Of a DNA stretch of 64,000 nucleotides, positions 6,037-64,000 are shown in pieces. The translations under genes and the position numbers were made by a program. The notes beneath the pieces are model-generated. The model did not search any database. It had not been told where the DNA came from and saw only the letters and a program-made list of their open reading frames with translations. How positions within the stretch are numbered: the stretch's first letter is position 1; every line of letters starts with the position of its first letter. Source of the DNA: a bacterium (GTDB lineage: Bacteria > Patescibacteriota > Saccharimonadia > Saccharimonadales > SZUA-47); NCBI GenBank assembly GCA_009923445.1, contig RFTN01000003.1, forward strand, positions 65,260 to 129,259, read 5' to 3'.

Positions 6037-6439
6037 CTGATAACCTCTTATTCCATTCTTCTATATTTTCATTATAGGGTAGGATAATTTGTTTAATCAT
6101 ATTAATTTCACACCATTCTGTTTTTTCTTTATCTCTTTTTTGAGCTTTTAGAAAACCCAACATATTATTGTGATAAAATGGTACAAATTTATAGTGTTGC
6201 TCACCATGAACTTCAATACAAGTTTTTGTTAATGGTAAATAAAAGTCTAGATATAAAACCTCTGAACGCCGTAATTGTATGGGTACTTCTTCCAAAATTT
6301 GTAAAGTTGGATATTTATTAGTAATCAATTCTCTGGCTTGTAAATGTAAACTCGATCTATTGGAGGTTCTTCCTTTAGACATATTTCCAGTTAAATGCCA
6401 TTGATGAGTATTACCATCTAAATCTTTTATCAGGCTCAT
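6029..6439 (-). CDS. DUF559/Vsr-like PD-(D/E)XK endonuclease (possible homing endonuclease)
   Basis: Motif LYLDFYLPLTKTCIEVHGEQHY matches the D..(I/V)E(V)(D/H)G.QH core of Vsr/DUF559-type nucleases; inserted between helicase and recombinase genes. Confidence 0.45.
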   Translation of the reverse strand: MSLIKDLDGNTHQWHLTGNMSKGRTSNRSSLHLQARELITNKYPTLQILEEVPIQLRRSEVLYLDFYLPLTKTCIEVHGEQHYKFVPFYHNNMLGFLKAQKRDKEKTEWCEINMIKQIILPYNENIEEWNKRLSDE

Positions 6440-7449
6440 TTTATGCCCATAGTCTCTTTTACTGTTTTAAGTAAAGTTTGATATACTTCAGGATTATCTA
6501 CTAAATATTGTCTAATTTTTTCTGTACCTTGAAATTTTGGCTTATCTTCTAAACTAGTCAAAGTATACCAAGCGCCTCCTTTATGAATTAATCCTATATC
6601 AGAAGCAAGCTGCACTAATTCCATTTGTTTATCTATTCCTTGTCCATATCTGAGATAGCTAGTAATACTTGCTCCCGGAGGACCAAGAGCAGAACATACT
6701 ACTTGCCATTCTATTTCCTGTCCTATTTGTGTACTATCAGCACTTAAAATCCATGGTTTAAAACTTTTAGCCCTTAACTTGATATCTGTTTGGTAAGCTA
6801 TAGCCTGACCACTTTTCTCTTTAAATTCTGCACCATATCCCGTGGGATTACCCATTAAGTGTGTGATACCAATAACAATATTTTTATTAACTGGAATAAC
6901 ATTCGCTACCTTACGACAGAATTTAGCTAATAATTTAGCTCCATCTGCTCTTTGCATTTTATCCATATCACTAGTAATTTCAGCTTCAGTACATAAAGCA
7001 GAATAAGAGTCTATAATAAGTATGGATCCTGGTATTTCATTAATAATTCTTTCAGCAATTTGTAGATATTCTTCGCCGTGTAAAATTTTACCTTGTTGAG
7101 AACCTATAACATGAAACTTATCTAAGTTCAAGCCTACTATGCCTTCAAGATCTCTTTTTTTCAATCTACCTTCGATGTTTAAGTAATACACTTCCCTACC
7201 ATCTTTAAAAGAACCATAAGCATATTCAGGTCTTTGGGCTGTTGCACAAAAATCTAAAGAAGATGTTGTTTTACCACACTTAGGTTGTCCTGTTAATACT
7301 ACAAAACTACCCTCGGGAATACCTCCATTTAAGACAATATCTAGAGATGGACTAACTGGAATAGTAATGACTTTTCTATCTACAACAGCATTACCTGTGA
7401 GAATAATATCATCGCCAAAATTTTTTAATACATCTTCTTTAAAACTCAT
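6436..7449 (-). CDS. RecA-superfamily recombinase (UvsX/RadA-like)
   Basis: 337 aa; Walker A GQPKCGKTT, Walker B ILIIDSYSAL, overall RecA-core layout. Confidence 0.8.
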   Translation of the reverse strand: MSFKEDVLKNFGDDIILTGNAVVDRKVITIPVSPSLDIVLNGGIPEGSFVVLTGQPKCGKTTSSLDFCATAQRPEYAYGSFKDGREVYYLNIEGRLKKRDLEGIVGLNLDKFHVIGSQQGKILHGEEYLQIAERIINEIPGSILIIDSYSALCTEAEITSDMDKMQRADGAKLLAKFCRKVANVIPVNKNIVIGITHLMGNPTGYGAEFKEKSGQAIAYQTDIKLRAKSFKPWILSADSTQIGQEIEWQVVCSALGPPGASITSYLRYGQGIDKQMELVQLASDIGLIHKGGAWYTLTSLEDKPKFQGTEKIRQYLVDNPEVYQTLLKTVKETMGIK

Positions 7450-23983: not shown

Positions 23984-25765
23984 TTAATAACCGGGTACAA
24001 AAGCCACAATATCCCACTTGTCTCTTCCCTGGTGGTATGTTGCGGCTAATATGTCCATTTTATTTACTGCGGCACTCCATGGTAATGGCGAAGTTGCACT
24101 ACTTGGAATATTAAATTTATTACCAAGAGTTACTGTGCGATTGCCAGTGCTGTCTTGAGTTATTCTCCAACGCAAAGTTTTACCATTAACCGGATTAGTT
24201 GGATTAGCTAGTGTGGTATTGCCTGTTAACGTAATATCAAAAATATCTCCAGAACTAGCGTCTGTATTTATAGTACTACTAAATGTTAAATTAACAACAG
24301 TTGTTGAGCCACCACCCAATACAGATGTTCCGTTGCTATCCAGAATATCGCCATCTATTGGTAATCTCAATTTGCCATCTGTACTAAACGTCCAGTGATT
24401 ATTATTTGAGTCTGTGCCAATAATAACATCCCCACCATTTTTTTCAATCTTTATATATTGATCATCATCACCCAAGTATAAATCAACAGTGGTTGGATCT
24501 CCAGATAATAGATGAACATGACTATGTTCTGAATTAGACATTCCATTATTAGTCACAGTAATATATTGACCAATGGGCATCCCATTAGATTCTTCAAAAT
24601 TATAATAGAGTGCTGGATCATTTTCGGTCTCTGTATTAGTTGACCTTATTCCATCAACACTCGTTAATGTTAGAGTAAATTCAGCAATATTGCTATCTGC
24701 TGGTATAGTCCAAGTAATATTTTGTGTCTCTGGAGCAGAAACGGTTGAGAAAGTTAGTTTTCCAGTTAGTGCTCGGCCTAATGATTGTGGGGTTACTCCT
24801 GTACCAGTAATAGTATAGTTTACTGTCCCAAAATAAGACCAGCTTTGTAGACTAACTGAAATTGTGATAGGATTACCATACTCAATATAATTACTAGTGC
24901 TCATCCCCCATATAGCTTGAGTAGGACGAATTACTAAACTTTGTCCAGAAGCTGCTGTGGGTGGCATTATAGAAACAGTATTATTTGTTTCGCTTAATAT
25001 GCTTCCTTCGGGTAGTGTTAAATTACCTTCTGAATCATAAACCCATCCTCTAGCATTAGAGGAAGCATGGGTATAAATCTTAAAAGAACTAGTCTGATCC
25101 ACAATTTGTATATTAGTTTCACCCTGATCGGCTTGACTTGCAATTAAGTTACCATTTGGTAGGGTTATGCTGCCATTTGAGCCAAAAGCCCAATTCTGAT
25201 TATTATTTTTGATTTCAACTTCACCACTATAGGTTGAATTAGTTTGACCAGGAATAGATAATCCAGTATCTTCTCCATTGGTAACCCATATCCCGCCATA
25301 AATGGGGCCGGTTTGTTCACCAGATTCATCTACTATAGTACCATCAGAAGATATAACCATACGACCAGTATCATGATAAATACTACCAACTTTTAATGTG
25401 CTAGGAGTTTGAGTATCATCATAACCATCTTCTTGACTATCTTGTATTAGAATACCTTTACCACTAAAAGCATTCATATCAAAAATCATATTACGATCAG
25501 CACCAATTAAAATATTACCATTATTATTAGTAGTAATAATTAAATCTTGATCATTATTAGCTGTGCTAATAGTTGATCCGTCAAAAACAATATCGCCCGT
25601 ATTAAGATTACTATTATTGTTATTACCAAGAAAAGTTTTAAGCTCATTTAATGATATTTTTTTGGTTGCGCCACCATTATTGGGGCTATCCATAAACAAA
25701 AATATATCATCATTACTTAGTTGACCACTACCATCTGGTAGATCTTTGATTTTTTTAATACTCAT
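23984..25765 (-). CDS. large tail fibre / receptor-binding-like protein
   Basis: 593 aa; N-terminus IKDLPDGSGQLSNDDIFLFMD...KKISLNELKTFL typical of phage fibre N-termini; Asn/Thr/Gly-rich. Confidence 0.6.
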   Translation of the reverse strand: MSIKKIKDLPDGSGQLSNDDIFLFMDSPNNGGATKKISLNELKTFLGNNNNSNLNTGDIVFDGSTISTANNDQDLIITTNNNGNILIGADRNMIFDMNAFSGKGILIQDSQEDGYDDTQTPSTLKVGSIYHDTGRMVISSDGTIVDESGEQTGPIYGGIWVTNGEDTGLSIPGQTNSTYSGEVEIKNNNQNWAFGSNGSITLPNGNLIASQADQGETNIQIVDQTSSFKIYTHASSNARGWVYDSEGNLTLPEGSILSETNNTVSIMPPTAASGQSLVIRPTQAIWGMSTSNYIEYGNPITISVSLQSWSYFGTVNYTITGTGVTPQSLGRALTGKLTFSTVSAPETQNITWTIPADSNIAEFTLTLTSVDGIRSTNTETENDPALYYNFEESNGMPIGQYITVTNNGMSNSEHSHVHLLSGDPTTVDLYLGDDDQYIKIEKNGGDVIIGTDSNNNHWTFSTDGKLRLPIDGDILDSNGTSVLGGGSTTVVNLTFSSTINTDASSGDIFDITLTGNTTLANPTNPVNGKTLRWRITQDSTGNRTVTLGNKFNIPSSATSPLPWSAAVNKMDILAATYHQGRDKWDIVAFVPGY

Positions 25766-39075: not shown

Positions 39076-40686
39076 CTATGCTATATTGATTGGGCCTAAT
39101 GATAAGTTATTACCAAAAATATAAGCTAAATGTGTTGGTACAGACTGTCCATTGATGGTATAGTTAACTTGCGGATCTCCAAGAGCTTCTTCCCAAGATA
39201 TTCTATGTCTTAATACTCCGTCTACTAATTTAGTTTCATTATTTGATATTGATCCTGAGCCATTAAAAGCGTCTATAGTAGCAGCAAAATCATATGATCT
39301 AAACCACGAAGTAAACCCTGCAAAGCTAGTATTTCCTGCAACAAGAGGAGTTATATATTTATATAATTGTACTGTTTCAATTAAATATTTTTTAAAATAA
39401 AAGTTATTATAAGCAGCTTTAAGGGTTGCTGTATTAATTCCATTTTTAATAATAATATTTTCATTACTATCTTTATAGTCATATAAACTATTTATAATAA
39501 TATCATCATTTGATTGTTTAGTATCATTAACCCATTGTTTATATATTTTAGATGCTTCACAAATATTTATATAATAAGATCGACATCTAATCCAATGATT
39601 CATAAAAATAGCCTGTTGGATAATTTCTTTTTGATCACTATTGAAATCTAAGATTGACGCTCCAAACTGAGAGTGTAAAATATTCAAATTAATGTTTCTG
39701 GGCCATCCATCGGGAAATAATGATTGTACTATATCGTCTACAGGATAGCCGTCCTCTGTCCAACCAAACCAAGGATCTTTTAAGGCTTGTTTGATAGACG
39801 GAATACTCCATTGCCATGTATTATTTTGTGGGGTCAAACTAGGTTCTGGAGTCGTAGTGGTTATATTATCTGTACATGCTAGAGAATTCCATCCAGTAAT
39901 ATATGAATTATTATTAGTAATATCAGATAAAGATGCTATATAGTTTTTAATTATATTTTTACCTTCAGAATCATTATTGATAAAGCTATATACTTTATTA
40001 TTATTGATATAGTCATTATGTGTTGTGTTGTTAGGTTCTGTAGTTTGATAAATAAAATTAGATTGTGATAAAAAGCTTTCATAATCAGCAATCATTCTTT
40101 TTTTAGGCTGATCTTTGGGAAAAGAAGAATTTGAAATATATTTCATTACTTCAAAAATATAACCACCAACTTTTTCAAGTTTACAAATATTATTTAATAT
40201 AAACATGCCTTCGGTCATAATAACGCTGGTTGTATCATATGTATTATCTATATTATTTTTTTTAATTCCTAACCCTCTGTGTTGTTTTGTTTCACATTGC
40301 CAACCCAATGGATTACCAAATACTATAAGATTTTCAATAAATAAATTCCCAGGAGCATATAAAGCATTTATTCTTTTACCCCATACAGAAGATATTGTTC
40401 CACCAAATTCTGGTTTAAGTTTTTCAATATATAATAATGTATAATGTGTTTCTCCCACAGGTATAAATAAATTTTCTGCTAAAAAATGTCTGTTATACCA
40501 TTCATTTACAAAAGTATCACTAATTGAAAAGGATGGTAGCGTATACGGTGGCCATGTCCAATAAGTATCTGGTGGTCCTTGGGGTGTTGGAACAGTACAG
40601 CATCCGCCGACGATACCATTATTTTGGTCTGAACCATTACCTCCACCGCCTCCTAAAATAGTTATTTTATTTGATTTAATAGTCAT
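39076..40686 (-). CDS. hypothetical protein (536 aa)
   Basis: Long ORF between family members 2 and 3; N-terminal GGGGGNG..GGCC, no recognised domain. Confidence 0.55.
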   Translation of the reverse strand: MTIKSNKITILGGGGGNGSDQNNGIVGGCCTVPTPQGPPDTYWTWPPYTLPSFSISDTFVNEWYNRHFLAENLFIPVGETHYTLLYIEKLKPEFGGTISSVWGKRINALYAPGNLFIENLIVFGNPLGWQCETKQHRGLGIKKNNIDNTYDTTSVIMTEGMFILNNICKLEKVGGYIFEVMKYISNSSFPKDQPKKRMIADYESFLSQSNFIYQTTEPNNTTHNDYINNNKVYSFINNDSEGKNIIKNYIASLSDITNNNSYITGWNSLACTDNITTTTPEPSLTPQNNTWQWSIPSIKQALKDPWFGWTEDGYPVDDIVQSLFPDGWPRNINLNILHSQFGASILDFNSDQKEIIQQAIFMNHWIRCRSYYINICEASKIYKQWVNDTKQSNDDIIINSLYDYKDSNENIIIKNGINTATLKAAYNNFYFKKYLIETVQLYKYITPLVAGNTSFAGFTSWFRSYDFAATIDAFNGSGSISNNETKLVDGVLRHRISWEEALGDPQVNYTINGQSVPTHLAYIFGNNLSLGPINIA

Positions 40687-40697
40687 ATTATAAATTC

Positions 40698-43682
40698 CTA
40701 ATTAGTGGTTGGTGCTAAAGTGGTTGTTGGGGCTACCGTTGTTGTAGGTCTTATTGTTGTGGTTGGAACTACCGTTGTTGTAGGTGTAATTGTTGTTGGA
40801 GCTACCGTTGTTATAGGAGCTATTGTTGTTGGGGCTACCGTTGTTGTAGTTGGTGGACAATTAATACTATTACACATTACATTAGCATAAAACTGTTCAT
40901 TAGGACCATCACAAATTGGTCTAGGTATATTATCAGCACAATAATAATCATTAGCACCATTACGGAGACAACATGCTCCTGGTGATTGCGTGGTTGTTGT
41001 TGATGTAGTGGTTGTTGATGTTGTTGATGTTGTTGATGTAGTGGTTGTTGTTCTGTTAAAACCTGTCTCTCCGCAATTTGGTATGGCTGGACTTGAAGTT
41101 GTACTGGTAGGAGACAATCTTGTTGGGCATTTAAGAACTAGAGTATCCTCATATGCAAAATCAAGAAAAACTTGTATAGTTATAACTCCTCTGGTTGGAT
41201 GCGTAAACTGCAAGTTAACAGGAACACCCAGTTGATTTTGCCATTCTTCTATTGTGCTTTGTGGCATTGGAGAATTTGACGATTTAATGATTCTAAAGTA
41301 TGAATTATCACTATAATCAATAGTGAAATTTCTCCACACATTATAATTTTGTTCTGGACTTCTAGCAGGATTATCTATAATAAAACTATTATCTCCGACT
41401 AATGAAGATATATTTAATTCATCAAAACAATAATTATCTCTTATGGGTATATTTGACACATTACAATCACAATTATCAGTTTCTGATGTCGGATCTGGAT
41501 ATACACAAACATCTCCAAAAGGAGGAGAATAATATTCTAAAGCAGTTAAGGAATAATCACATCCTGGCAAATTGGTGCGTTTGTAAACTATATTAAACGA
41601 ACCTAGAGATTGGGTGCTGCATTTCTGCCAACAAGCACAATTTATCGGGGTAGATGTTGTTGGAACAACAGTTGTAGATGTTGTTGTGCTAGTGGTTGTT
41701 GTAGTATTAGGTCCACAATTAATATCATCACAAATAGCATTAAGATAAAAAGTAGCATTATAATTATTAATACAAATTAATTGAGGTATATTGTTAGCAC
41801 AATAATAATTATTTTGATTATTTACACAGCATGCTCCAAACGGAGGCGGTGTAGTTGTGGTCGTTGCACAAAAATTAATATCTGCACAAGACTGTTGAGG
41901 ATAAAAAGTTTTCTTAAATGGTCCAGTACCACCGCCTGTACAAAGAGGCTGTCTAATATTATCATAACAAAGAGCGGGAACTCCCTCTCCATCGCCGTTA
42001 CAACACGCTCCAAAACATCTACTACTTGGTAATGCCTCGTTACACTCTTGTTCAGAAATGTATTCGCCACCTGTTTCAATATAAGATGGTAATTGATAAC
42101 AATAGGCCATAACCTCTATTTGATCACCACAATTAATAGACCATCTCTTAGGAACATTAGTTGTTGAGGTTGTGCTTGTAGTCGTGGTGGTTGTGGTCGT
42201 TGTGGTCGTTGTGGTCGTTGTGCTAGTGGTTGTGGTCGTTGTGGGAATAGTTGTTGTAGAAGTCGTACCGCCACCGCACATATTCATACTACACATTTTA
42301 GTAGCAAAAAATACAGAAAATAGACTTGCTGGCAATGGAGCACTACACTGTTGTTTAGTAAGATTATTTACACAATCCATGTATGTCATACTACCATCTA
42401 TTGGATTAACAACAAAATAACAACATGCTCCTGGTACTGATGGTGAAATTGTAGTTGTAGTTGTAGTTGTAGTTGTAGATGTTGCGGGAGGCTGAGTGGT
42501 AGTTGACGTTGCAGCTGGTGTGGTGGTTGTTGTACGACTATCATAAGTAAGACTATTTGTAATAACCTCATTTGTACTTGTTTGATTTGATCCACCGATA
42601 TTATATATTATTCTAACTTTAAAAATAACAGTACCAGAAAAATATTGATTATTATTTAATGGAAATATTGGGAAAGCATATACCGTATTTGGTAAACGTG
42701 CTAAATCTGATGTCATATTACCATATATAGTTTTATAGTATGGTGATTGTTCGGATGTCATCCAAATACCAGAAATATTATAAGAAACATAAACTCTAAT
42801 ATATCCTATATTTGTAGAATATGACGATATTGGTAAACAAGCATTATTATATCTTAATTGTATTGATGCAATGGGTTCTCCTGGGATACTAGGCTTATCA
42901 TCGAACCATCCTGCATTAGCAGTAATAATTGAACACTTATCATCACTGAATGGTGGAATAGTGGTTGTAGGTCCGCTAGTAGTGGTAACTCCGCTGGTTG
43001 TGGTAACTCCGCTGGTGGTGGTAACTCCGCTGGTTGTGGTAACTCCGCTGGTTGTGGTAACTCCGCTGGTGGTGGTAGGTCCGCTAGTAGTTGTAACTCC
43101 GCTGGTTGTGGTTATATTAGCCGTAGTTGTGGGAGCGAGAGTGGTGGAAGAACAAAATTGATAATTATATACCCCTGGAAAATCTATCCATGGACTAATA
43201 GGACCATTAATATTAAATAGATAAAATTCAACACTAATAGATCTAATTCTAAATATTAAACTATTATTATTTAATGGTAATTCTATATATACGGTATATA
43301 TTCCGCCGCCGGTGGTGTCGGCTTTAACAAACCTTCTATCAAAAACAGAAAAATTAATAATATTAATAGCTTCTATTTCAAAAGCTTTAATATTAGTATT
43401 AATGTTTGGATGAGCAAATTTTAGTACTATATATTTTACATTTTGTTGCGGACTAGATAAATTGTCGTAACATCCAATAGAAATAATTTTTGGAGGAGGT
43501 AATTCTGTTGTTGGTGTTTCGGTGGTTGTGACCCCTCTGGTAGTTGTAACTCCGCTGGTTGTGGTAACTCCGCTGGTGGTGGTAACTCCGCTGGTTGTGG
43601 TAACTCCGCTGGTTGTGGTAACTCCGCTGGTTGTGGTAACTCCGCCCAGGATGTAACATCTGTACCATCTCCTAAAGACCAA
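40698..43682 (-). CDS. giant Thr/Cys-rich modular fibre protein, distal part (probably the 3' portion of a single roughly 1,880-codon gene)
   Basis: 994 aa from a weak TTG start. Alternates TSG[VP]TT linkers, beta-sandwich-like modules and four G-A-C-C cysteine modules. Its frame is -1 relative to the upstream ORF. Confidence 0.7.
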   Translation of the reverse strand: MVFRRWYRCYILGGVTTTSGVTTTSGVTTTSGVTTTSGVTTTSGVTTTRGVTTTETPTTELPPPKIISIGCYDNLSSPQQNVKYIVLKFAHPNINTNIKAFEIEAINIINFSVFDRRFVKADTTGGGIYTVYIELPLNNNSLIFRIRSISVEFYLFNINGPISPWIDFPGVYNYQFCSSTTLAPTTTANITTTSGVTTTSGPTTTSGVTTTSGVTTTSGVTTTSGVTTTSGVTTTSGPTTTIPPFSDDKCSIITANAGWFDDKPSIPGEPIASIQLRYNNACLPISSYSTNIGYIRVYVSYNISGIWMTSEQSPYYKTIYGNMTSDLARLPNTVYAFPIFPLNNNQYFSGTVIFKVRIIYNIGGSNQTSTNEVITNSLTYDSRTTTTTPAATSTTTQPPATSTTTTTTTTTISPSVPGACCYFVVNPIDGSMTYMDCVNNLTKQQCSAPLPASLFSVFFATKMCSMNMCGGGTTSTTTIPTTTTTTSTTTTTTTTTTTTTTTSTTSTTNVPKRWSINCGDQIEVMAYCYQLPSYIETGGEYISEQECNEALPSSRCFGACCNGDGEGVPALCYDNIRQPLCTGGGTGPFKKTFYPQQSCADINFCATTTTTPPPFGACCVNNQNNYYCANNIPQLICINNYNATFYLNAICDDINCGPNTTTTTSTTTSTTVVPTTSTPINCACWQKCSTQSLGSFNIVYKRTNLPGCDYSLTALEYYSPPFGDVCVYPDPTSETDNCDCNVSNIPIRDNYCFDELNISSLVGDNSFIIDNPARSPEQNYNVWRNFTIDYSDNSYFRIIKSSNSPMPQSTIEEWQNQLGVPVNLQFTHPTRGVITIQVFLDFAYEDTLVLKCPTRLSPTSTTSSPAIPNCGETGFNRTTTTTSTTSTTSTTTTSTTTTQSPGACCLRNGANDYYCADNIPRPICDGPNEQFYANVMCNSINCPPTTTTVAPTTIAPITTVAPTTITPTTTVVPTTTIRPTTTVAPTTTLAPTTN
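40701..40855 (-). repeat. approx. 24-nt coding repeat (TTVAPTTx C-terminal tail)
   Basis: Encodes TTVAPTTIAPITTVAPTTITPTTTVVPTTTIRPTTTVAPTTTLAPTTN at the protein C-terminus. Confidence 0.8.
42158..42268 (-). repeat. poly-Thr/Ser coding tract
   Basis: gtcgtggtggttgtggtcgttgtggtc... encodes TTTTTSTTTTTTTTTTTTTTTSTTSTT. Confidence 0.9.
42958..43130 (-). repeat. 18-nt tandem repeat array 1 (ggtaactccgctggttgt; TSGVTT linker)
   Basis: About 9 near-identical in-frame units read directly from the sequence. Confidence 0.95.
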
Positions 43683-46336
43683 AACCTAACTCTCCAGTAA
43701 TAACCATTTTGAATATTACTCAACACAAAAACACTTGTACGATTACTTTCTATAGTATATATAGCTTCATCTATCCAAGAAATACCATTATCCATACTTT
43801 TCTGTAGTTGAATGCCTACATTAAAATTATTAATATTATTAATTATTAAATTTTTATTAACTCTATTTATTAAAGGAGGAGTAATATTTCCTATATTATA
43901 AATATAATTAGTGCTCCAAGCACTTGGTATAACACCATTAATATCATATGCTCGTGCTCTCCATAATGACGGAGTATTAACTGCTGTTGTAGTATAATTA
44001 CCACTATTAGCTAGTATATTAATAAAATCTACATCATTCCAAGATAAGCCGTTGTCAAAACTTCGTTGTACTTGACAATTAACTGTAAAATCGTTTATAT
44101 TAAACAAATATGTGTTAGATAGTGCTTGACCAGGAAAATCTGGATTAGCCCTTAGTATTGGCGGAACAATATTAGTAGAAACATTAGGATCAGTATAAGA
44201 TATATATGGAGTAATTATACTATTACTATATATCGGATTATTTTGATTATCATAATACATCATGGTTATTCTGAATCTAGCACCACCAGAATATCCACTT
44301 ATTGATGGAAATACGGCTTGTGTATATACTTTAAAGTTTAAATATGATGTAGTTAATGTAGTATTCAATATCCAATTATTGGTATTAACAATATTGTATT
44401 CAATATAATAATATATTGATCCTATATTTGAACTAGGAATACTTGGTACAGAACAATTATCATAAGACAAATCAATCTGCGCTAGCTGTATCGATGAAAT
44501 ATTATTGGACGCAAGCCATGAAGGAGTCGCTGAAGATATTAAACAACTTCCTATTGCTCTTGTCGTTGTGGTGGTAACATTAGCTGTTGTTGCTCCGCTG
44601 GTGGTGGTAACTCCGCTGGTTGTGGTAACTCCGCTGGTTGTGGTAACTCCGCTGGTTGTGGTAGGTCCGCTGGTTGTGGTAACTCCGCTGGTTGTGGTAG
44701 TTACTCCTGCGGTGGTTGTTGGAGCGGGACTAAATTGCAAAGAGATGTTATCATTAATTAAAGGTGTTTTGTTAATAGCTAAAATTCTATTAACTCTATC
44801 TATACCAGTAATAGTTGTATTTGATGGTATCCCCGATCCAAAAACTATATCTCGAACTTTTACATTGTTTAAATTATTGTTATTATCTTGAGTAATAATA
44901 ATTATATTGATACTTGGACTAATTTGTCCTATGATAGTATTTAAAGATGTAGATAAAAATAATGTTTCTAATTGTTGTGTTTCAGTTGTATTATTACTAA
45001 TTTTAATATAATTATCATTAGAATTATTAATATAAGTAATAACAGTATTTTCTGGTATACCAGAACCAGATATTGTTGAACCCAATTTAATTTTATTAAT
45101 ATCATTAGGTTCAACAAAAATAATATTAGTATTAATGCTATATGTGCCTAAAAAAGAAACCAATGGGCCAGACGTTGTTGTTGGACCAGTACTTGTTCTT
45201 GTTGTTTCACAAGTACAAGAATCACAATAGAATGTGGTTCCAGATGAACAATTTATAACAGGATAAAAAATATTTCCTGTACAATTATATGTAGGACATG
45301 GTGGGACCGTAGTAGTTGTGCTGGTGGTGGGGCCGCTGGTGGTGGTGGGGCCGCTGGTGGTGGGGCCGCTAGTTGTGGTAACGTTACTAGTAGTAGTAGT
45401 AGTAGTAGTAGGTATATTAGTTGTGGTTGTTGTAATAATTATACTAGAATTACAATCAGCATTATTACATGTTTTGAACGGTTTAAAAATTGTGCTAATT
45501 GTTTGTGGTCTTGGAATATTACATTCTGACTCTAACATTTCTTGACAATCAAAATATTGTTGTCCACCATTACTAGTATTCAAGTAGAAACAGCAAGAAC
45601 CCATTACTGACTGACTATTAATAATAGCTGAACCAGCAGTAATATTATTAATTGATGATAATACCGTAAATTCTGCTGAATTAATAACTTTATTTACAAC
45701 ATATTGGCCCACAGCAGTATTACCAGTAATAGGATAAAAATTAATAGTTTGACCAGTTATTAAATTATGATTATTTAATTGACAAGTTATAACAGATGCT
45801 TGTTGGCTATAATTTATCTGATAATCAGTGGGGGCTTTGTAAATAACATATGGAGTAAAATCATTTTTATGTTGAAATAAATAAGTATTAAATTTAATTA
45901 AAGAAGATAAAGAATTAATATTAGACAATGGATTATAGGAAATAAATCCTGAACCAAAAGAATTTATTGCATATATTTTTGTAATTTTATTATCAAAAAT
46001 AGAGTCTTTAAGAACTAAATTTTCACCATAATAAGTAATAATTTCTAAATTTTTTCTAGCAACTATGAACGAAGGAGGTTCTACTTGTTGAAACCCAGAA
46101 GGTATCGATAGACTATACGGAGAAGAATCAAAGCTTTGAATTATTACAGATTGGTATTTTTGCAGAGATGATAGTGAATTAATATTAGATTCTGGAGAAT
46201 ATGATACGAATCCGCTGCCAGCATTATTGCTGCCGTAAACTCTTACTAAGCGACTATTCTCTGACCCGTTAAGATCCTGTATATTTACCTGATCATATAG
46301 CCATTGAACAAAAGATATTGGCCGATTTATTTGCAT
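43436..46336 (-). CDS. giant Thr/Cys-rich modular fibre protein, proximal part
   Basis: 966 aa; duplicated N-terminal modules, one G-S-C-C cysteine module, TSGVTT linkers, and two FN3-like modules (YWRVRF..G.G..VTSW) at the end before the frame change. Confidence 0.7.
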   Translation of the reverse strand: MQINRPISFVQWLYDQVNIQDLNGSENSRLVRVYGSNNAGSGFVSYSPESNINSLSSLQKYQSVIIQSFDSSPYSLSIPSGFQQVEPPSFIVARKNLEIITYYGENLVLKDSIFDNKITKIYAINSFGSGFISYNPLSNINSLSSLIKFNTYLFQHKNDFTPYVIYKAPTDYQINYSQQASVITCQLNNHNLITGQTINFYPITGNTAVGQYVVNKVINSAEFTVLSSINNITAGSAIINSQSVMGSCCFYLNTSNGGQQYFDCQEMLESECNIPRPQTISTIFKPFKTCNNADCNSSIIITTTTTNIPTTTTTTTSNVTTTSGPTTSGPTTTSGPTTSTTTTVPPCPTYNCTGNIFYPVINCSSGTTFYCDSCTCETTRTSTGPTTTSGPLVSFLGTYSINTNIIFVEPNDINKIKLGSTISGSGIPENTVITYINNSNDNYIKISNNTTETQQLETLFLSTSLNTIIGQISPSINIIIITQDNNNNLNNVKVRDIVFGSGIPSNTTITGIDRVNRILAINKTPLINDNISLQFSPAPTTTAGVTTTTSGVTTTSGPTTTSGVTTTSGVTTTSGVTTTSGATTANVTTTTTRAIGSCLISSATPSWLASNNISSIQLAQIDLSYDNCSVPSIPSSNIGSIYYYIEYNIVNTNNWILNTTLTTSYLNFKVYTQAVFPSISGYSGGARFRITMMYYDNQNNPIYSNSIITPYISYTDPNVSTNIVPPILRANPDFPGQALSNTYLFNINDFTVNCQVQRSFDNGLSWNDVDFINILANSGNYTTTAVNTPSLWRARAYDINGVIPSAWSTNYIYNIGNITPPLINRVNKNLIINNINNFNVGIQLQKSMDNGISWIDEAIYTIESNRTSVFVLSNIQNGYYWRVRFWSLGDGTDVTSWAELPQPAELPQPAELPQPAELPPPAELPQPAELQLPEGSQPPKHQQQNYLLQKLFLLDVTTIYLVRNKM
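43520..43646 (-). repeat. 18-nt tandem repeat array 2 (same unit), in the overlap of the two giant ORFs
   Basis: About 7 units. Read as TSGVTT in the 40698..43682 frame and as AELPQP in the 43436..46336 frame. Confidence 0.95.
44563..44722 (-). repeat. 18-nt tandem repeat array 3 (same unit)
   Basis: About 7 units ggtaactccgctggttgt with minor variants. Confidence 0.95.
45305..45440 (-). repeat. degenerate Thr/Ser/Gly/Pro linker repeat array 4
   Basis: tggtggggccgctggtgg units then (agt)n; encodes TTSGPTTSGPTTTSGPTTSTTTT. Confidence 0.85.
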
Positions 46337-49316: not shown

Positions 49317-50234
49317 TTAGATCACCGGATATAGTATACCATATCCCTCATATTCTTTTTTGCCTGCGTATTTTGGATCAGATAGATGCTTTGACAGCTT
49401 TTTAAAAATATCTATATAGTCATCAGACGTAGCAAGTTTTGTTTTATTATTAATATTATGAGACAGCAAAAGACTAGCACAACCAACAGCGAATGGATTA
49501 CTCATACTAGTTCCGCTCATAATAGCATAACCATTATTTGGTACAGTACTTACTATCTCATGCCCTGGTGCTAAAAAGTCTAGTTCTTCACCAGAACAAG
49601 AAAAAGATGTCCTATTAAAATTTTTATCAATGGCTCCAATACATATTACTTCTGAATATTTAGCTGGATACATAATAGGAGATCTTTCTCCAGCATTACC
49701 AGCAGCACAAAATGTTACTATTCCTTTACTAGCAGCATATTTTATAGCTTTTTCTATACCAATAAATGGAGAAGGAGAACCCAAAGACATAGTAATAAAG
49801 TCCGCTCGGCGATCCGCTGCATAAATCACAGCCTTTGCTATGGCTTCTGGATCACCCTGTCCTTCATCATTAAGAGCCTTGAGAGGCATTATTTTAGTTT
49901 CTGGAGCAACACCCACCATACCTTTATTGTTGTTGCAGGCGGCGATTGTTCCACTGACATGAGTACCATGACCATTGTGGTCGGTTGGGTCTTGACCTAA
50001 CTCTATGAAATTTTTACCTTCTATTATATTATCTTTTAAATCATTATGATTGAGATCACATCCAGTGTCAATTACGGCAACAACAACGCCTCTGCCCGTC
50101 GCATAATTCCATAAATTTTGTATGTCAAATTTAGTAATCTCCCATCCTAAATACTGCCCACTATCACTAGATAAACCGTGCAAATCTTCTCTTTCATAAG
50201 GCAATAAACCCCAACTATTTTTTCTTCTGCGCAT
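49317..50234 (-). CDS. subtilisin-like (S8) serine protease
   Basis: Catalytic triad motifs VAVIDTGCD (Asp), HGTHVSGTIAA (His), GTSMSNPFAVG (Ser). Confidence 0.85.
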   Translation of the reverse strand: MRRRKNSWGLLPYEREDLHGLSSDSGQYLGWEITKFDIQNLWNYATGRGVVVAVIDTGCDLNHNDLKDNIIEGKNFIELGQDPTDHNGHGTHVSGTIAACNNNKGMVGVAPETKIMPLKALNDEGQGDPEAIAKAVIYAADRRADFITMSLGSPSPFIGIEKAIKYAASKGIVTFCAAGNAGERSPIMYPAKYSEVICIGAIDKNFNRTSFSCSGEELDFLAPGHEIVSTVPNNGYAIMSGTSMSNPFAVGCASLLLSHNINNKTKLATSDDYIDIFKKLSKHLSDPKYAGKKEYEGYGILYPVI

Positions 50235-50979
50235 TTTGCGTCTCCTTAATAGTATTTTCTATCCATTCAATATGATAGCTAATTCTGGTGTGTCCACTTT
50301 CATCTCCATATGAAGCGTCACCTTTTTTATCCCTAGCAAATAAACAAGAATTTATTCCTGCTAATTTATTATTAATAAATAAACCACCGCCGCTATCTCC
50401 TCCTGCTATTAAAAATTCTAATTCTGTTTTATCAGATTCCAAAGAAGGAGAACATATTAACATATTTTTTTCAATTTTATCTATTATATTAGAGCCTGCC
50501 CTCCTTTTTCCATCGTCTTTGTGAAACCCTGTATTAAAGTCTCCCGTTAAACCAAAACCAGACATATAGCATATTCGTCCCACTTCATCATTAGTATTAT
50601 ATAATTTTGGATAAATATCTAAATCTAAACTATTATCTAGTATTAATATTGCAATATCATTACAATCAAAATCATTATTCTTGAAATTAGGATGTTGTAT
50701 AACTTTATTTACAGAATATACTTTATTATTATAATCTATAAAACATCCTTTGGATTTATCTACAATATGTGCTGCTGTTAATATATAATTTGGACTGATA
50801 GCTACTGCTGACCCAAAAAATAAATCATCATTTTGATATTGTCCTATTATTTTTAGAACATATTTAAATTTTGATCCAAATTCAATATGTTTAGTATCAT
50901 CAGTAGATGGAGATATAGTACCACTATAACTAGTAGCACTAAATAATATAGAATATATTAATACCAGTATAAAAACCAT
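50215..50979 (-). CDS. trypsin-like (S1) serine protease with signal peptide
   Basis: LTAAHIV (His), NDIAILIL (Asp), GDSGGGLF (Ser); N-terminal MVFILVLIYSILFSATSYSG signal-like segment. Confidence 0.8.
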   Translation of the reverse strand: MVFILVLIYSILFSATSYSGTISPSTDDTKHIEFGSKFKYVLKIIGQYQNDDLFFGSAVAISPNYILTAAHIVDKSKGCFIDYNNKVYSVNKVIQHPNFKNNDFDCNDIAILILDNSLDLDIYPKLYNTNDEVGRICYMSGFGLTGDFNTGFHKDDGKRRAGSNIIDKIEKNMLICSPSLESDKTELEFLIAGGDSGGGLFINNKLAGINSCLFARDKKGDASYGDESGHTRISYHIEWIENTIKETQNAQKKK

Positions 50980-51137: not shown

Positions 51138-52034
51138 TTATTGCATAGTGCCTATAACTCTACCTTTTGGGGTTCTATGCACATATCCGGCCCTAACTAA
51201 AAATGGCTCAATACTGTTTTCAATAGTTTCAATAGCTATGCCACTTAAAGATGAAATACTTTTTAGTCCCAGAGCATTACCTTTTGCTTTTACTAATACT
51301 TCCAAATACAATCTATCATAAACGTCTAGTCCTCTATAATCAATTCCCTGACTATTAAAAATTTCATCAATATTTACTTCTTTATCTTTATAGAAAGAAA
51401 TATAATTTTTATACCACTGGAGTCTGGCATTTAAAATTCTTGGTGTTCCCTTGCTTCTTTTTGCTATCTCCAAAAGATCATCTTCAGAAACATTTAGTCC
51501 GAGTTTTGTGGCGTTCAATCCGGCTAGTTTAGCTAGTTCATCACAACTATAAAAGGATAAATGTTCCTTAATAGTAAATCTATCATAAAATGGTTGGCTT
51601 AAACGTCCACCACTAGTAGTAGCACCAACAATAGTAAATACTGGTAAATCTATTGTTTCTGGCTTATCTTCAATTGTAATATTTAATACAAAATCTTCCA
51701 TTACAGGATACAAAAATTCTTCTACAATCTTGGGAAGTCTATGAATCTCATCAATAAACAATACTGATCTTGGCGCAATACCCATTAAATATGGTAAAAT
51801 ATTTTTAATACTACGAATATTTGCGGCGTTTACAACATGAAGGTTTGCATTGAGTTCGTTTGCTATAGCACCCGCTATTGTAGTTTTACCAAGGCCAGGA
51901 GGCCCATCAATTAAAGTATGAGGCATCACGCCAGATGAATTTAAACAACCGTGCGAGACAATCCTCAGACGTTGTACAACTTCAGCTTGACCGATAATAT
52001 CATTAAACGATGCTGGTCTGATAGAGTTTGACAT
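51138..52034 (-). CDS. ruvB: RuvB-like Holliday junction branch-migration ATPase
   Basis: IRPASFNDIIGQ, GPPGLGKTT, VLFIDEIHRL, EEFLYPVMEDF, TIVGATT and FYDRF track E. coli RuvB motif for motif. Confidence 0.85.
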   Translation of the reverse strand: MSNSIRPASFNDIIGQAEVVQRLRIVSHGCLNSSGVMPHTLIDGPPGLGKTTIAGAIANELNANLHVVNAANIRSIKNILPYLMGIAPRSVLFIDEIHRLPKIVEEFLYPVMEDFVLNITIEDKPETIDLPVFTIVGATTSGGRLSQPFYDRFTIKEHLSFYSCDELAKLAGLNATKLGLNVSEDDLLEIAKRSKGTPRILNARLQWYKNYISFYKDKEVNIDEIFNSQGIDYRGLDVYDRLYLEVLVKAKGNALGLKSISSLSGIAIETIENSIEPFLVRAGYVHRTPKGRVIGTMQ

Positions 52035-52036
52035 AA

Positions 52037-52444
52037 TTAGTTCCTCAATGATTCCAATGTTTGTTTAACCAAAATAGTTAGATCATCAACTTGATTTTTT
52101 TCATATGATTTTTTTATAATGTCTGATGCTTCAGATTTAGTAAAACCATAATTTGTTAAAGTGGTAATAGCCTTTGTCAGTAGTTCTTCTGAAATACTTT
52201 TTTGAACTGTATCTGAAACGTCTGTTGTATTAGTTTTAGTTTTTATTTCCGGCTTATGAAATTTTAACTTAAAACCAGCAATTCTTTTAACTTTAAAAAC
52301 GTTTCCACAGTAACATACTGTTTTAAAGTTTTTAGTTGAAGCTTCTTTATAAGATAACCAATGATCTTGACCACATTTTGGACATCTATACTTTAGATGA
52401 ATATCATTATCAATCGGTTTCTGGATTTTGTTTTTTAATATCAT
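52037..52444 (-). CDS. Zn-ribbon protein with RuvA domain-III-like C-terminus
   Basis: N-terminal CPKCG...CYCGNVF ribbon. C-terminal AITTLTNYGFTKSEASDIIKKS...LVKQTLESL aligns by eye with RuvA domain III ALVALGYKPQEASRMVSKI...LIREALRAAL. Confidence 0.5.
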   Translation of the reverse strand: MILKNKIQKPIDNDIHLKYRCPKCGQDHWLSYKEASTKNFKTVCYCGNVFKVKRIAGFKLKFHKPEIKTKTNTTDVSDTVQKSISEELLTKAITTLTNYGFTKSEASDIIKKSYEKNQVDDLTILVKQTLESLRN

Positions 52445-52838
52445 TTTCTTTTACCCAAAAAATAAAGTCATTTGTTTTTTCATCAAATGCCGTTTCCAAC
52501 AATCCGTCATTAACTAATTTATTTAGTATATTACTTATCATTCTACTATTAAAAGCTTCTAGTATTTTGGTAAGTATTTTATCATTAATGTAATGCTCTA
52601 GAAGTTTAGTACGCCTATTAACTTTTGTTTTGATAAAGTTTTTGACTATGATCTCGCACTCATTAAAAGTTAACGTATTATCCATTTCTGTTTTTTCCGG
52701 CCCTGTTAAAGATAACATACTAGTAAAAGAATCTGGAGAACTTTGGTTCATTTCTCCAAAAAACTTAAAGACTAGTTTTCTTGCATGATCTATAAATTCT
52801 CGTAAATCTTTTATAAGATACCATTCACTATTTTTCAT
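52410..52838 (-). CDS. hypothetical protein
   Basis: 142 aa ORF; no motif recognised. Confidence 0.45.
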   Translation of the reverse strand: MKNSEWYLIKDLREFIDHARKLVFKFFGEMNQSSPDSFTSMLSLTGPEKTEMDNTLTFNECEIIVKNFIKTKVNRRTKLLEHYINDKILTKILEAFNSRMISNILNKLVNDGLLETAFDEKTNDFIFWVKENDIKKQNPETD

Positions 52839-52847
52839 AACTTATTC

Positions 52848-53255
52848 CTAATTAAGAATATCAAACATATTCTTATAATAGTGTGGCTGTTTTAAAAAGT
52901 GAACAGCATTAGATTTCAGATGATTCAAATACATACCATCAATAGGATCATGTATAAAATATTTTTTCTTCCATACTTTAACATTATCATAGTTATTCCC
53001 CAAATACTGGAAGGAATTACCCTTACCAGCATTGGAGAAGTAACTATTCACAGGAAATGACTTATTCGGAAAACCGCCAATATACCATACGTTTGGAGAA
53101 GTTTCAACTATATTATTCAAAGCGTCATATAACATTTTACCCCAAGCGTCCCAAGCTGTTGGATCGAACTTAAAATAGTGTTTATACTTTTTCTCTAAAT
53201 CATCCTGACTATCGTCATAATCATAATCATCTCCATAATCATAATCTTCGTGCAT
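52848..53255 (-). CDS. hypothetical protein with Asp/Tyr-rich N-terminus
   Basis: 135 aa; MHEDYDYGDDYDYDDSQDD leader. Confidence 0.45.
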   Translation of the reverse strand: MHEDYDYGDDYDYDDSQDDLEKKYKHYFKFDPTAWDAWGKMLYDALNNIVETSPNVWYIGGFPNKSFPVNSYFSNAGKGNSFQYLGNNYDNVKVWKKKYFIHDPIDGMYLNHLKSNAVHFLKQPHYYKNMFDILN

Positions 53256-62421: not shown

Positions 62422-63738
62422 TTAGAATGTTCTAGCAGAACCGTGCAAAATTTTAAAAGTTGGAAAGCGTAAACTTATGCCGCCATCTTGATTTTGACTC
62501 TCACTAAAATATTGTACGGTAATAATTTTTCCTAAAATTTTCTTAGGATTCTTATAAAATTCCTGTCGTTGCTCAATACTAAAACCAGAACCAACCCTAA
62601 CATCATAACCTTTATGCTTAATAGTTACACAACTTAGCATAATTTCTTCATTTTCAGCACCATCTTTAACATAGCGGAATGGACCCATTTCTGTATCGAC
62701 TACCTCATATTCATCGTCAAAAAACTTTTTAACTTTCAGTAGGTCTTTACTACGCTTACCTTTATATGGTTCGTCTGCTCGTAGCATAACTCCTTCCCAG
62801 CCATAATCAGCAGCTTCTTTAACCCACTCTTGAAAATGCTCATCATTATGAATCAATTCTTGTTCAAGAAAGGTAAGGCACGAACATTCGTTCTTAGTCA
62901 TAATCTCTGTCAAATTTGCCAAACGAATAGAATAAGGACGATTTTTTTCACCATTCTTTCTGTAAAACTCATCATGCGTAATCATATCAAAAATCTTAAA
63001 GGACGGATTAGGAATAGTATGATCTTTCTTTTTCAGTTGTTTCATAATTCCTTGAAAGTCCTCATTACCATCTTCATCAACAAGACAAAGTTCTCCATCA
63101 AGAACTACATTGGTAATGTTAAGAGCCTTAATGCCATCAGAAACAATACCAAGAGTATCAAACTCTTTTCCTGTACGGGAGTAGAAAGTAGGGTTGCCAT
63201 TAGTATCAACAATAGCGATACATCTAGCACCGTCAATTTTTCTACTAACATACCATCCATCCTTCCAATCTACAAGTTTAGGCTCATATTTATCTGCTAA
63301 AGCAACACTAAATTCTGGAATAAGGTCTGGAATAGCTTTATTGATAATCTTATCCCCAGCACGGGTTTTCAAGTCTTTATCAATAATACAATAAATAAGT
63401 TCTTCGATATTGTCTTTCTTGGACTGACTATCAATAAAAGTATGAATTGCTCCGATAGCATCATGACCAGTAATTTGGCGGTTCTTTAGATCATCAAGAA
63501 GATCAAAGAAATTATTATAACTCTTACCTCTCAATGAATTTTTCTTCTTCAGATTATCGCTGGTTACATTATATTGCCACAACGGATGATATGTATAGAG
63601 CAAAATATTCTTAGCAAATTGTGCTGATGCTGTTTGATGATTACAATAATCCTCAATAATACCTTGCTTATCTATAGTGCTGCTTGTAGCCCTAAGATCA
63701 CGAACCATCCCCCAAACATAATTAAAATCGTGAGTCAT
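62422..63738 (-). CDS. ATP-dependent DNA ligase
   Basis: 438 aa; motif I VSRKIDGARC (KxDG), later DGELC and EGVMLR motifs, OB-like C-terminus; AGGAGA ribosome-binding site. Confidence 0.85.
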   Translation of the reverse strand: MTHDFNYVWGMVRDLRATSSTIDKQGIIEDYCNHQTASAQFAKNILLYTYHPLWQYNVTSDNLKKKNSLRGKSYNNFFDLLDDLKNRQITGHDAIGAIHTFIDSQSKKDNIEELIYCIIDKDLKTRAGDKIINKAIPDLIPEFSVALADKYEPKLVDWKDGWYVSRKIDGARCIAIVDTNGNPTFYSRTGKEFDTLGIVSDGIKALNITNVVLDGELCLVDEDGNEDFQGIMKQLKKKDHTIPNPSFKIFDMITHDEFYRKNGEKNRPYSIRLANLTEIMTKNECSCLTFLEQELIHNDEHFQEWVKEAADYGWEGVMLRADEPYKGKRSKDLLKVKKFFDDEYEVVDTEMGPFRYVKDGAENEEIMLSCVTIKHKGYDVRVGSGFSIEQRQEFYKNPKKILGKIITVQYFSESQNQDGGISLRFPTFKILHGSARTF

Positions 63739-63800: not shown

Positions 63801-64000
63801 TTATTTACGATTTGGCCTTGAGAGAAAATAATTCATAGCATTAACAATTCCCTCTAAATTATCTCCTAATTTACCGATACCAGTATTGCATTTATCGCAT
63901 AACCATCCTCTAAAACTGTCATCATCATGATCATGATCCAAGGCCCATTTGATAGGATTTTTTTTACAACACTCACACACACTTGGTTTTGGTGGTGCTT
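63801..64000 (-). CDS. endonuclease VII-family (T4 gp49-like/HNH-related) protein, C-terminal part; start beyond window end
   Basis: Absent from ORF track. Own translation ..APPKPSVCECCKKNPIKWALDHDHDDDSFRGWLCDKCNTGIGKLGDNLEGIVNAMNYFLSRPNRK*, the C..C...DHDH...RG.LC..CN..G signature. Confidence 0.75.
   Translation of the reverse strand, partial: APPKPSVCECCKKNPIKWALDHDHDDDSFRGWLCDKCNTGIGKLGDNLEGIVNAMNYFLSRPNRK

Follow-up and report, generated by a model that had tools for sequence, protein, structure and literature searches.

The 64-kb stretch of DNA that we analysed (contig RFTN01000003.1, positions 65,260 to 129,259 of the forward strand; "the window" below) belongs to an uncultured phage from water and encodes a homologue of RuvB and, directly upstream of it, a 135-residue protein with a predicted zinc ribbon. 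We propose that this small protein is a "mini-RuvA", in which domain III of RuvA has been kept at the end of a flexible linker and a basic zinc ribbon replaces the junction-binding domains I and II. From sequence comparisons and structure models, we place the probability of this reading at roughly 0.6; for one part of it, the homology of the C-terminal domain to RuvA domain III, the case is considerably firmer, and we regard it as very probable. These observations point to a variant of RuvAB whose architecture is so far undescribed. Our examination of the literature found no description joining RuvA domain III, a zinc ribbon and a phage; PHROGs contained no matching family, and BFVD no structural counterpart. 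The genes of the cassette and the predicted parts of the small protein are as follows.

52410 to 52838, minus strand: gene for a 142-residue protein, here called up142, which overlaps the small open reading frame (ORF) by 35 nt.
52037 to 52444, minus strand: the small ORF, 135 residues, directly upstream of ruvB.
52259 to 52444, minus strand: residues 1 to 62 of the small protein, a predicted basic zinc ribbon (alignment, AlphaFold2 and Foldseek).
52193 to 52258, minus strand: residues 63 to 84, a Lys/Thr-rich linker, predicted to be disordered from the predicted local distance difference test (pLDDT) and gap-rich alignment columns.
52040 to 52192, minus strand: residues 85 to 135, the putative three-helix homologue of RuvA domain III (profile, hidden Markov model (HMM) and fold).
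52042 to 52046, minus strand: GAGGA, a Shine-Dalgarno-like motif for ruvB, within the small ORF near its 3' end and 7 nt before the ruvB ATG.
51138 to 52034, minus strand: phage RuvB, 298 residues (Pfam, NCBIfam and a hairpin alignment with bacterial RuvBs).

The small ORF ends with a TAA stop codon at 52039..52037, which is followed by a 2-nt spacer and then by the ATG of ruvB at 52034..52032. This spacing, together with the location of the ribosome-binding motif within the small ORF, implies translational coupling of the 2 genes. An earlier examination of the letters of the window (the sequence-only reading) had placed a gene for a 135-residue protein 2 nt upstream of that for RuvB, and we confirmed the coordinates and strand of this ORF. 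All of the motifs quoted at that time were found as well: CPKCG at residues 21 to 25, CYCG at residues 44 to 47, and a C-terminus that reads AITTLTNYGFTKSEASDIIKKS...LVKQTLESL. The two-gene picture drawn there was correct for the small gene and ruvB, but overlooked up142, the overlapping gene at 52410..52838.

Judged by its conservation, the small ORF is a real gene. We collected 51 homologues of its product, which were 41–62% identical, and a profile search of 1.84 billion representative sequences returned 459 clusters (50% identity) at an expectation value (E) of ≤1e-3. The 150 best of these clusters were 80–184 residues long and matched nearly the whole profile in all but two cases (80 and 110 residues, zinc-ribbon half only), so that the architecture appears common to them. 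In the IMG/VR collection, 187 loci encode the small protein. By contrast with these numbers, we obtained 2 matches from a scan of 185,579 species genomes in GTDB, both on short contigs of metagenome-assembled genomes (MAGs) and hence without a clue to the host, and none from DNA and tblastn searches of INPHARED, in which no cultured phage carries the protein. An identical copy, on a 141-kb contig of a MAG labelled "bacterium", carries no annotation beyond "hypothetical protein".

Alignment of the family identified 8 invariant residues, C21, C24, C44, C46, G100, L125, K127 and L130. The 4 cysteines form the CxxC (C21/C24) and CxC (C44/C46) pairs of the predicted zinc ribbon, which AlphaFold2 modelled with four β-strands. 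The model of the whole small protein had a pLDDT of 81 overall, with values of approximately 90–96 over residues 21–50, below 50 at residues 71–80, and approximately 80–90 in the C-terminal domain. Across the family, the net charge of the zinc-ribbon domain averages +9, and the linker ranges in length from 6 to 48 residues. When the zinc-ribbon fold was compared with known structures by Foldseek, only small zinc ribbons were matched, namely ribosomal zinc-ribbon proteins and ZitP.

The partner gene was described in the sequence-only reading as an unambiguous ruvB homologue, and this is borne out by matches to all 3 of the Pfam domains of RuvB (RuvB_N, 9.6e-44; AAA_lid_4, 3.1e-9; RuvB_C, 6.5e-17), each profile being covered over nearly its full length, and by a score of 293.2 bits against the NCBIfam equivalog model NF000868 (RuvB), which passes the cutoff of 282. 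The score against an older model, TIGR00635, was below cutoff (268, versus 299). The translation includes a Walker A motif (GPPGLGKT), a Walker B motif (FIDEIH), an arginine-finger region (YDRF) and a sensor 2 motif (GTPRI), and the RTPKGR motif is present in the winged-helix (RuvB_C) domain. Of particular relevance here is the presensor-1 β-hairpin, which in E. coli RuvB corresponds to L135–L152 (PMC2628435). RuvA domain III docks on a hydrophobic surface formed by this hairpin and helix α3 of RuvB, where it serves both as a nucleotide-exchange factor and as an anchor (PMC9477746). Alignment with bacterial RuvBs showed that both strands of the hairpin (LNITI / ETIDL) are kept in the phage RuvBs, in which the tip is usually about 4 residues shorter than in the bacterial proteins.

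Few catalogued phages appear to encode RuvB. The protein of the window matched no RuvB family in PHROGs. A search of INPHARED gave 34 RuvB matches, and the 9 that we inspected were all bacterial-type loci; 8 had a canonical ruvA, and the ninth was the terminal part of a Streptococcus prophage record. We used these loci solely to supply diverse RuvA sequences. The INPHARED "phage" records designated H2–H35 (e.g., CAKLQF020000007.1, MN180249.1 and OR844993.1) contained ordinary bacterial ruvA-ruvB operons flanked by housekeeping genes, e.g., purL, tolQ and the RNase HII gene, and these regions resemble host DNA or wrongly assigned contigs rather than phage genes. A survey of jumbo phages described RuvC resolvases that are uncoupled from RuvB-like ATPases (PMC7824862).

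We compared the C-terminal domain of the small protein with RuvA by several methods. A profile of the family, when searched against the sequences of the PDB, gave as its best match domain III of Thermus thermophilus RuvA, in the RuvA-RuvB complex 1ixs (chain A, E 9e-4). After the profile was broadened to three lineages, the top 7 PDB matches were all RuvA (E 1.5e-5 to 0.09), and the nearest UBA domain, 2g3q, followed at E 0.9. Comparison by hhalign with 12 diverse RuvAs yielded a probability of 88% (E 2.9e-6) and then of 92.3% (E 5.5e-7), over 49–52 columns that correspond to RuvA positions 149–200. Conversely, when the 480 six-frame segments of the window were searched with a RuvA HMM, the small ORF was the only match (E 5e-6, RuvA positions 127–199). 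The top match of the small protein among the 18,950 NCBIfam models was TIGR00084, the ruvA model, at E 6.7e-4; the score of 19 bits does not reach the cutoff of 85. AlphaFold2 predicted helices at residues 86–98, 103–116 and 122–134, and the best PDB matches of the modelled domain by Foldseek were RuvA chains: 1ixs_A, with a root mean square deviation (rmsd) of 1.8 Å and a template modelling (TM) score of 0.76, and 7oa5 and 2ztc, with an rmsd of 1.3 Å. The resemblance of the C-terminus to RuvA domain III, which had been pointed out in the sequence-only reading, is thus borne out at the levels of profile, HMM and fold.

The residues through which RuvA acts on RuvB are largely retained. Five positions that are invariant in our RuvA alignment, L167, L170, G171, Y172 and L199 in E. 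coli numbering, correspond to L96, Y99, G100, F101 and L130 of the small protein, respectively. Among 34 members of the phage family, we observed Leu at position 96 in 33, Tyr (30) or Phe (4) at position 99, Gly at position 100 in all 34, Phe or Tyr at position 101 in all 34, and Leu at position 130 in all 34. The Tyr or Phe at the position of L170 is, as judged from the alignment, a conservative substitution rather than the same residue. In RuvA itself, the L167A and L170A substitutions abolish RuvB activity in vivo and leave junction binding unaffected (PMC2628435).

The remainder of RuvA was not found. The RuvA HMM, applied to all 480 six-frame segments, detected neither domain I nor domain II within the window and aligned to the small ORF only, in agreement with the earlier statement that canonical RuvA is absent nearby. 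A scan of the 2.9 million IMG/VR contigs, for which we used the pair of RuvA motifs that are best conserved, detected canonical RuvA at 4 loci and at none on contigs of this clade. Where RuvA has domains I and II, the N-terminal half of the small protein is the predicted zinc ribbon. The proposed system would work in the manner of RuvAB, but by these comparisons the small protein does not qualify as a RuvA; what the 2 proteins have in common is domain III alone, at the level of profiles and below the curated threshold of Pfam.

The linkage of the small gene to ruvB was followed across related loci (designated here by the letter L and a number). IMG/VR loci that were found with the small protein as the query constitute one syntenic main clade; separate scans of IMG/VR were made with RuvB as the query. 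In 80 of 80 IMG/VR loci, ruvB lies on the same strand just downstream of the small gene, and the encoded RuvBs are 66–86% identical. The distance between the 2 genes was –32 to +5 nt in all 71 complete loci; the interval between ruvB and the next conserved gene varied from approximately 100 nt to more than 3 kb, with inserted genes that differ from one genome to another. Since all 80 loci belong to one syntenic clade, the scans with RuvB provide the stronger evidence of linkage. Outside the main clade, a protein with the same order of zinc ribbon, linker and domain III was found at 3 loci. In L106 (107-kb contig, 43% guanine plus cytosine (GC)), a 120-residue version lies directly upstream of ruvB; in L107 (125-kb contig, GC 40%), the gene for a 123-residue version overlaps ruvB, and the RuvB is 44% identical to that of the window; and in L194 (126-kb contig, GC 45%), two genes, one of them for an RNA ligase, are inserted between the gene for a 120-residue version and ruvB. 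The genes that neighbour the pair in L106 and L107 differ from those of the window. The lineages that carry the pair have GC contents of 33–45% (33% in the window). The occurrence of the same architecture in L106, L107 and L194 implies that the pairing is older than the split of these lineages.

RuvB also occurs in other lineages, namely L104, L105, L142/L153/L156, L184 and L196–L209, in which we could detect no neighbour of RuvB that resembled domain III or RuvA. In L142, L153 and L156 (IMG/VR contigs of 110–144 kb), the RuvB-like ATPase is divergent, with AATN in place of GATT as its sensor motif. After it come two membrane proteins, paralogues of each other, with N-termini (e.g., AIQEIANQLGITVDAVTKEV) that look by eye loosely like a helix-turn-helix or domain III. 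These membrane proteins were matched neither by the RuvA HMM nor by an HMM of the phage domain III.

A number of observations weigh against a mini-RuvA, and are gathered here. The RuvA matches obtained by Foldseek have weak E-values (0.2–1.6), which we attribute to the size of the domain, only some 50 residues. The Pfam family RuvA_C (PF07499) did not match the protein of the window at E ≤1, and matched weakly only 3 of 34 family members (best E 0.093). Divergent members scored higher (22.7, 17.9, 16.1, 15.9 and 14.8 bits); for the highest of these, the protein of L107, RuvA_C was the top Pfam match (E 1.4e-4), yet no member of the family reached the gathering score of 24 bits. A search of BFVD by fold returned generic viral zinc ribbons only, and no match that included both domains. 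It is hard to see how a monomeric zinc ribbon could recognise a four-way junction. Linkage within the main clade is confounded by general synteny. Finally, the small gene is altogether missing from at least 15 distinct main-clade loci: ruvB is intact and abuts the 142-residue gene, and no ORF for a zinc ribbon or domain III was found within 3–4 kb. Such loci made up 10 of 62 in one scan with RuvB and 7 of 21 in another, or approximately 1 in 5, and the RuvB hairpin looks unchanged in them. In a neighbour-joining RuvB tree they occupy at least 6 separate positions, and the junctions of the deletions vary, which indicates repeated loss.

Repeated loss with ruvB left intact argues that the small protein is an accessory and not an obligatory replacement for RuvA; it is therefore an accessory, unless a copy has relocated elsewhere in those genomes. 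The proposal of the sequence-only reading, that the small protein is a RuvA substitute or adaptor for RuvB, is supported in part, namely by the domain III homology, the absence of RuvA and the coupling to ruvB. Linkage in related phages, which that reading asked for, is partly upheld: the gene is coupled to ruvB in every complete locus and lies beside or near ruvB in L106, L107 and L194, but has been lost from the loci just described.

With these reservations, we envisage that a mini-RuvA would function as follows. The domain III-like module would dock on the hydrophobic surface of the presensor-1 β-hairpin of phage RuvB and, as bacterial RuvA domain III does, tether the hexamer and stimulate its nucleotide cycle. 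The zinc ribbon would attach the complex to DNA, or to a partner that is itself bound to DNA, most likely the co-translated 142-residue protein. The RuvB motor would then drive branch migration or fork remodelling in recombination-dependent replication, and the pair may work with two further proteins encoded in the same window, a UvsX-like recombinase and an endonuclease VII-like resolvase (described below). Because the gene has been lost repeatedly, the small protein would be a stimulatory or targeting accessory rather than an essential subunit.

A tentative elaboration, to which we give distinctly less credence, takes domain III to be a portable tag for the recruitment of RuvB, carried on a monomeric zinc ribbon and assisted by a winged-helix-like partner. 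Such an arrangement would provide a RuvB that is free of the RuvA tetramer, and that may be aimed at substrates beyond the classical Holliday junction, for example forks or D-loops of recombination-dependent replication.

The partner in question, up142, figures more prominently in a second alternative, that the small protein is a connector. Here the zinc ribbon would bind not DNA but the 142-residue protein, which would be the true DNA- or junction-binding component, and so bridge it to RuvB as a three-part analogue of RuvA. We consider this unlikely, although several observations favour it. The 3 genes overlap or abut in every complete main-clade locus, and up142 is present in all members of the clade: every locus of the main clade that we examined has it beside ruvB, even where the small gene is missing, so that it is more constantly linked to ruvB than is the zinc-ribbon protein. 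AlphaFold2 predicted a compact α/β protein (pLDDT 82, predicted TM score 0.71), and its top matches by Foldseek were DNA-binding winged-helix proteins of the MarR family, MepR, HucR and RovA. Also, the conserved C-terminal tail of up142, of PETD type, was observed in 73 of 93 distinct sequences from loci with the small gene, versus 2 of 15 from loci without it. Other observations speak against it. The zinc-ribbon/domain III protein occurs in L106/L107 and L194, where no up142 homologue was found. The likeness to winged helices is weak (E 0.06–0.6, TM 0.2–0.26, rmsd >10 Å), and a profile of up142 searched against the PDB gave AdcR at E 0.88. Since the PETD-tail codons extend into the start of the small gene, one deletion could remove both, and the correlation is confounded. 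A separate possibility, that up142 is a split-off RuvA domain I/II, was rejected: hhalign gave a probability of 0.1%, and no PDB sequence matched below E 0.29.

Improbable in our estimation is a third alternative, in which the small protein acts on the host as a decoy, mimicking domain III so as to titrate or redirect host RuvB and thereby control host recombination and repair during infection. Domain III alone is indeed the RuvB-binding module of RuvA (PMC2628435; PMC9477746), and dispensability in some lineages is a property that the gene shares with many accessory genes of host takeover. We disfavour a decoy because the gene is so strictly coupled to the phage's own ruvB, translationally in all 71 complete loci; a phage ruvB adjoins it or lies near it in every locus examined, the 2 genes have been inherited together in three diverged lineages, and the phage RuvB retains the docking hairpin. 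Least credible is coincidence, that is, a generic UBA-like three-helix bundle with no role in RuvB function, on an unrelated zinc-ribbon regulator kept in place by synteny: no member passes the Pfam RuvA_C threshold, small three-helix domains are common (weak matches were also seen to WIYLD, UBA_3 and RecX_HTH1) and RuvB persists where the small gene is lost, but RuvA was the specific top match in four independent libraries or methods, with UBA far lower (2g3q), the positions that are invariant in RuvA and activate RuvB are conserved, and the pairing survives among differing neighbour genes, and these specific matches and conserved interface residues count against it.

The putative mini-RuvA both resembles and departs from the bacterial protein. 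It shares with RuvA a homologous domain III with the same three-helix fold, preceded by a flexible linker (in RuvA, between domains II and III), and the cassette resembles bacterial ruvAB operons in that the gene directly precedes ruvB, with translational coupling between the two. The phage domain found its best matches, in both sequence and structure, among complexes of RuvA domain III with RuvB (1IXS from T. thermophilus; 7PBL and related structures from cryo-electron microscopy). Yet it is only 14–21% identical to RuvA domain III over the aligned region, has Tyr or Phe for L170, and contains a 2-residue insertion before the last helix. Unlike RuvA, the phage protein is without domain I (an OB fold, responsible for tetramerisation) and domain II (two helix-hairpin-helix motifs), in whose place is a zinc ribbon of approximately 60 residues with four Cys; it is 135 residues long, compared with about 200 for RuvA; its gene is dispensable in several related phages; and the cassette includes a third conserved gene, that for the 142-residue protein.

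By their predicted gene content, the surroundings of the ruvB cassette are those of a phage. Just upstream of the cassette are rIIB (PHROG match, 4.7e-73) and rIIA (9.4e-115), and the window also encodes a UvsX-like recombinase, a DnaB-like helicase, a primase, a ribonucleotide reductase and an ATP-dependent ligase. The genes most relevant to recombination are these.

6436 to 7449, minus strand: UvsX/RecA-like recombinase (PHROG 97, E 6.6e-39).
62422 to 63738: ATP-dependent DNA ligase, beside the endonuclease VII-like fragment.
63801 to 64000, minus strand: C-terminal part of an endonuclease VII-like resolvase, truncated at the end of the window (motif recognised by eye).

The first of these had been noted as a RecA-like gene, and its PHROG match identifies it as UvsX-like. 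The last had been called an endonuclease VII fragment, and we retain that description on a match of motifs by eye: the translation (...CECCKKNPIKWALDHDHDDDSFRGWLCDKCN...) contains a C-x2-C element (CECC) followed by LDHDH and RGWLCDKCN, which we take to be the motif of T4 endonuclease VII. The endonuclease VII-like protein is likely to be the resolvase partner of the pathway. The UvsX-like recombinase, rIIA, rIIB, ligase and endonuclease VII-like fragment are features that the window has in common with phage T4. In T4, branch migration is carried out by the superfamily 2 helicase UvsW, and the phage is not known to have a RuvB; the window, in contrast, encodes an AAA+ RuvB with a putative mini-RuvA.

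Several other features of the region were noted. A scan of the cassette for promoters and terminators gave nothing above the expectation from shuffled sequences. Between rIIB and the cassette, at 52848..53255 on the minus strand, is a gene for another 135-residue protein. The N-terminus of this protein (MHEDYDYGDDYDYDDSQDD...) is very acidic and rich in Asp and Tyr, and searches of Pfam, PHROGs and NCBIfam gave no match; related loci, e.g., L122, L125 and L159, have the gene conserved at the same location. Just downstream of ruvB (49317..50979, minus strand) are genes for a trypsin-like protein of 254 residues, which apparently has a signal peptide, and for a subtilisin/S8-like protein of 305 residues. 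This predicted pair of peptidases, which is unusual for a phage replication region, is kept in related phages; in L090 the two match the Pfam families Trypsin and Peptidase_S8. Downstream of ruvB in L090 (11966..12970), L122 (5257..6255) and L159 (5238..6239) lies an actin-like gene (Pfam Volactin/MreB_Mbl); this insertion, which the window lacks, is followed by an HNH-like gene (weak Pfam HNH match in L090), and in L122 and L159 a gene for a small membrane protein precedes the actin-like gene. Large ORFs of 994, 966, 593 and 536 residues (40698..46336, 23984..25765 and 39076..40686, all on the minus strand) had no PHROG match at E ≤1e-5. An interpretation of the region as a defence system was dropped, PADLOC having given only generic P-loop or noise-level matches.

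What these observations describe is a large clade (459 clusters; 187 IMG/VR loci) in which RuvB is paired with a protein that appears to keep, of RuvA, only the domain that docks on RuvB. If the pair is functional, it would be a natural minimal system in which to study the effect of domain III alone on the nucleotide cycle of RuvB, and would test whether anchoring by the four-fold RuvA core is needed for the generation of force, as in the lever model (PMC9477746). Should domain III prove to be a portable tag of the kind outlined above, the pair would also be a natural minimal system that separates the activation of RuvB from the recognition of junctions. In either case, a testable function can now be offered for these widespread hypothetical proteins and perhaps for their 142-residue neighbour too.

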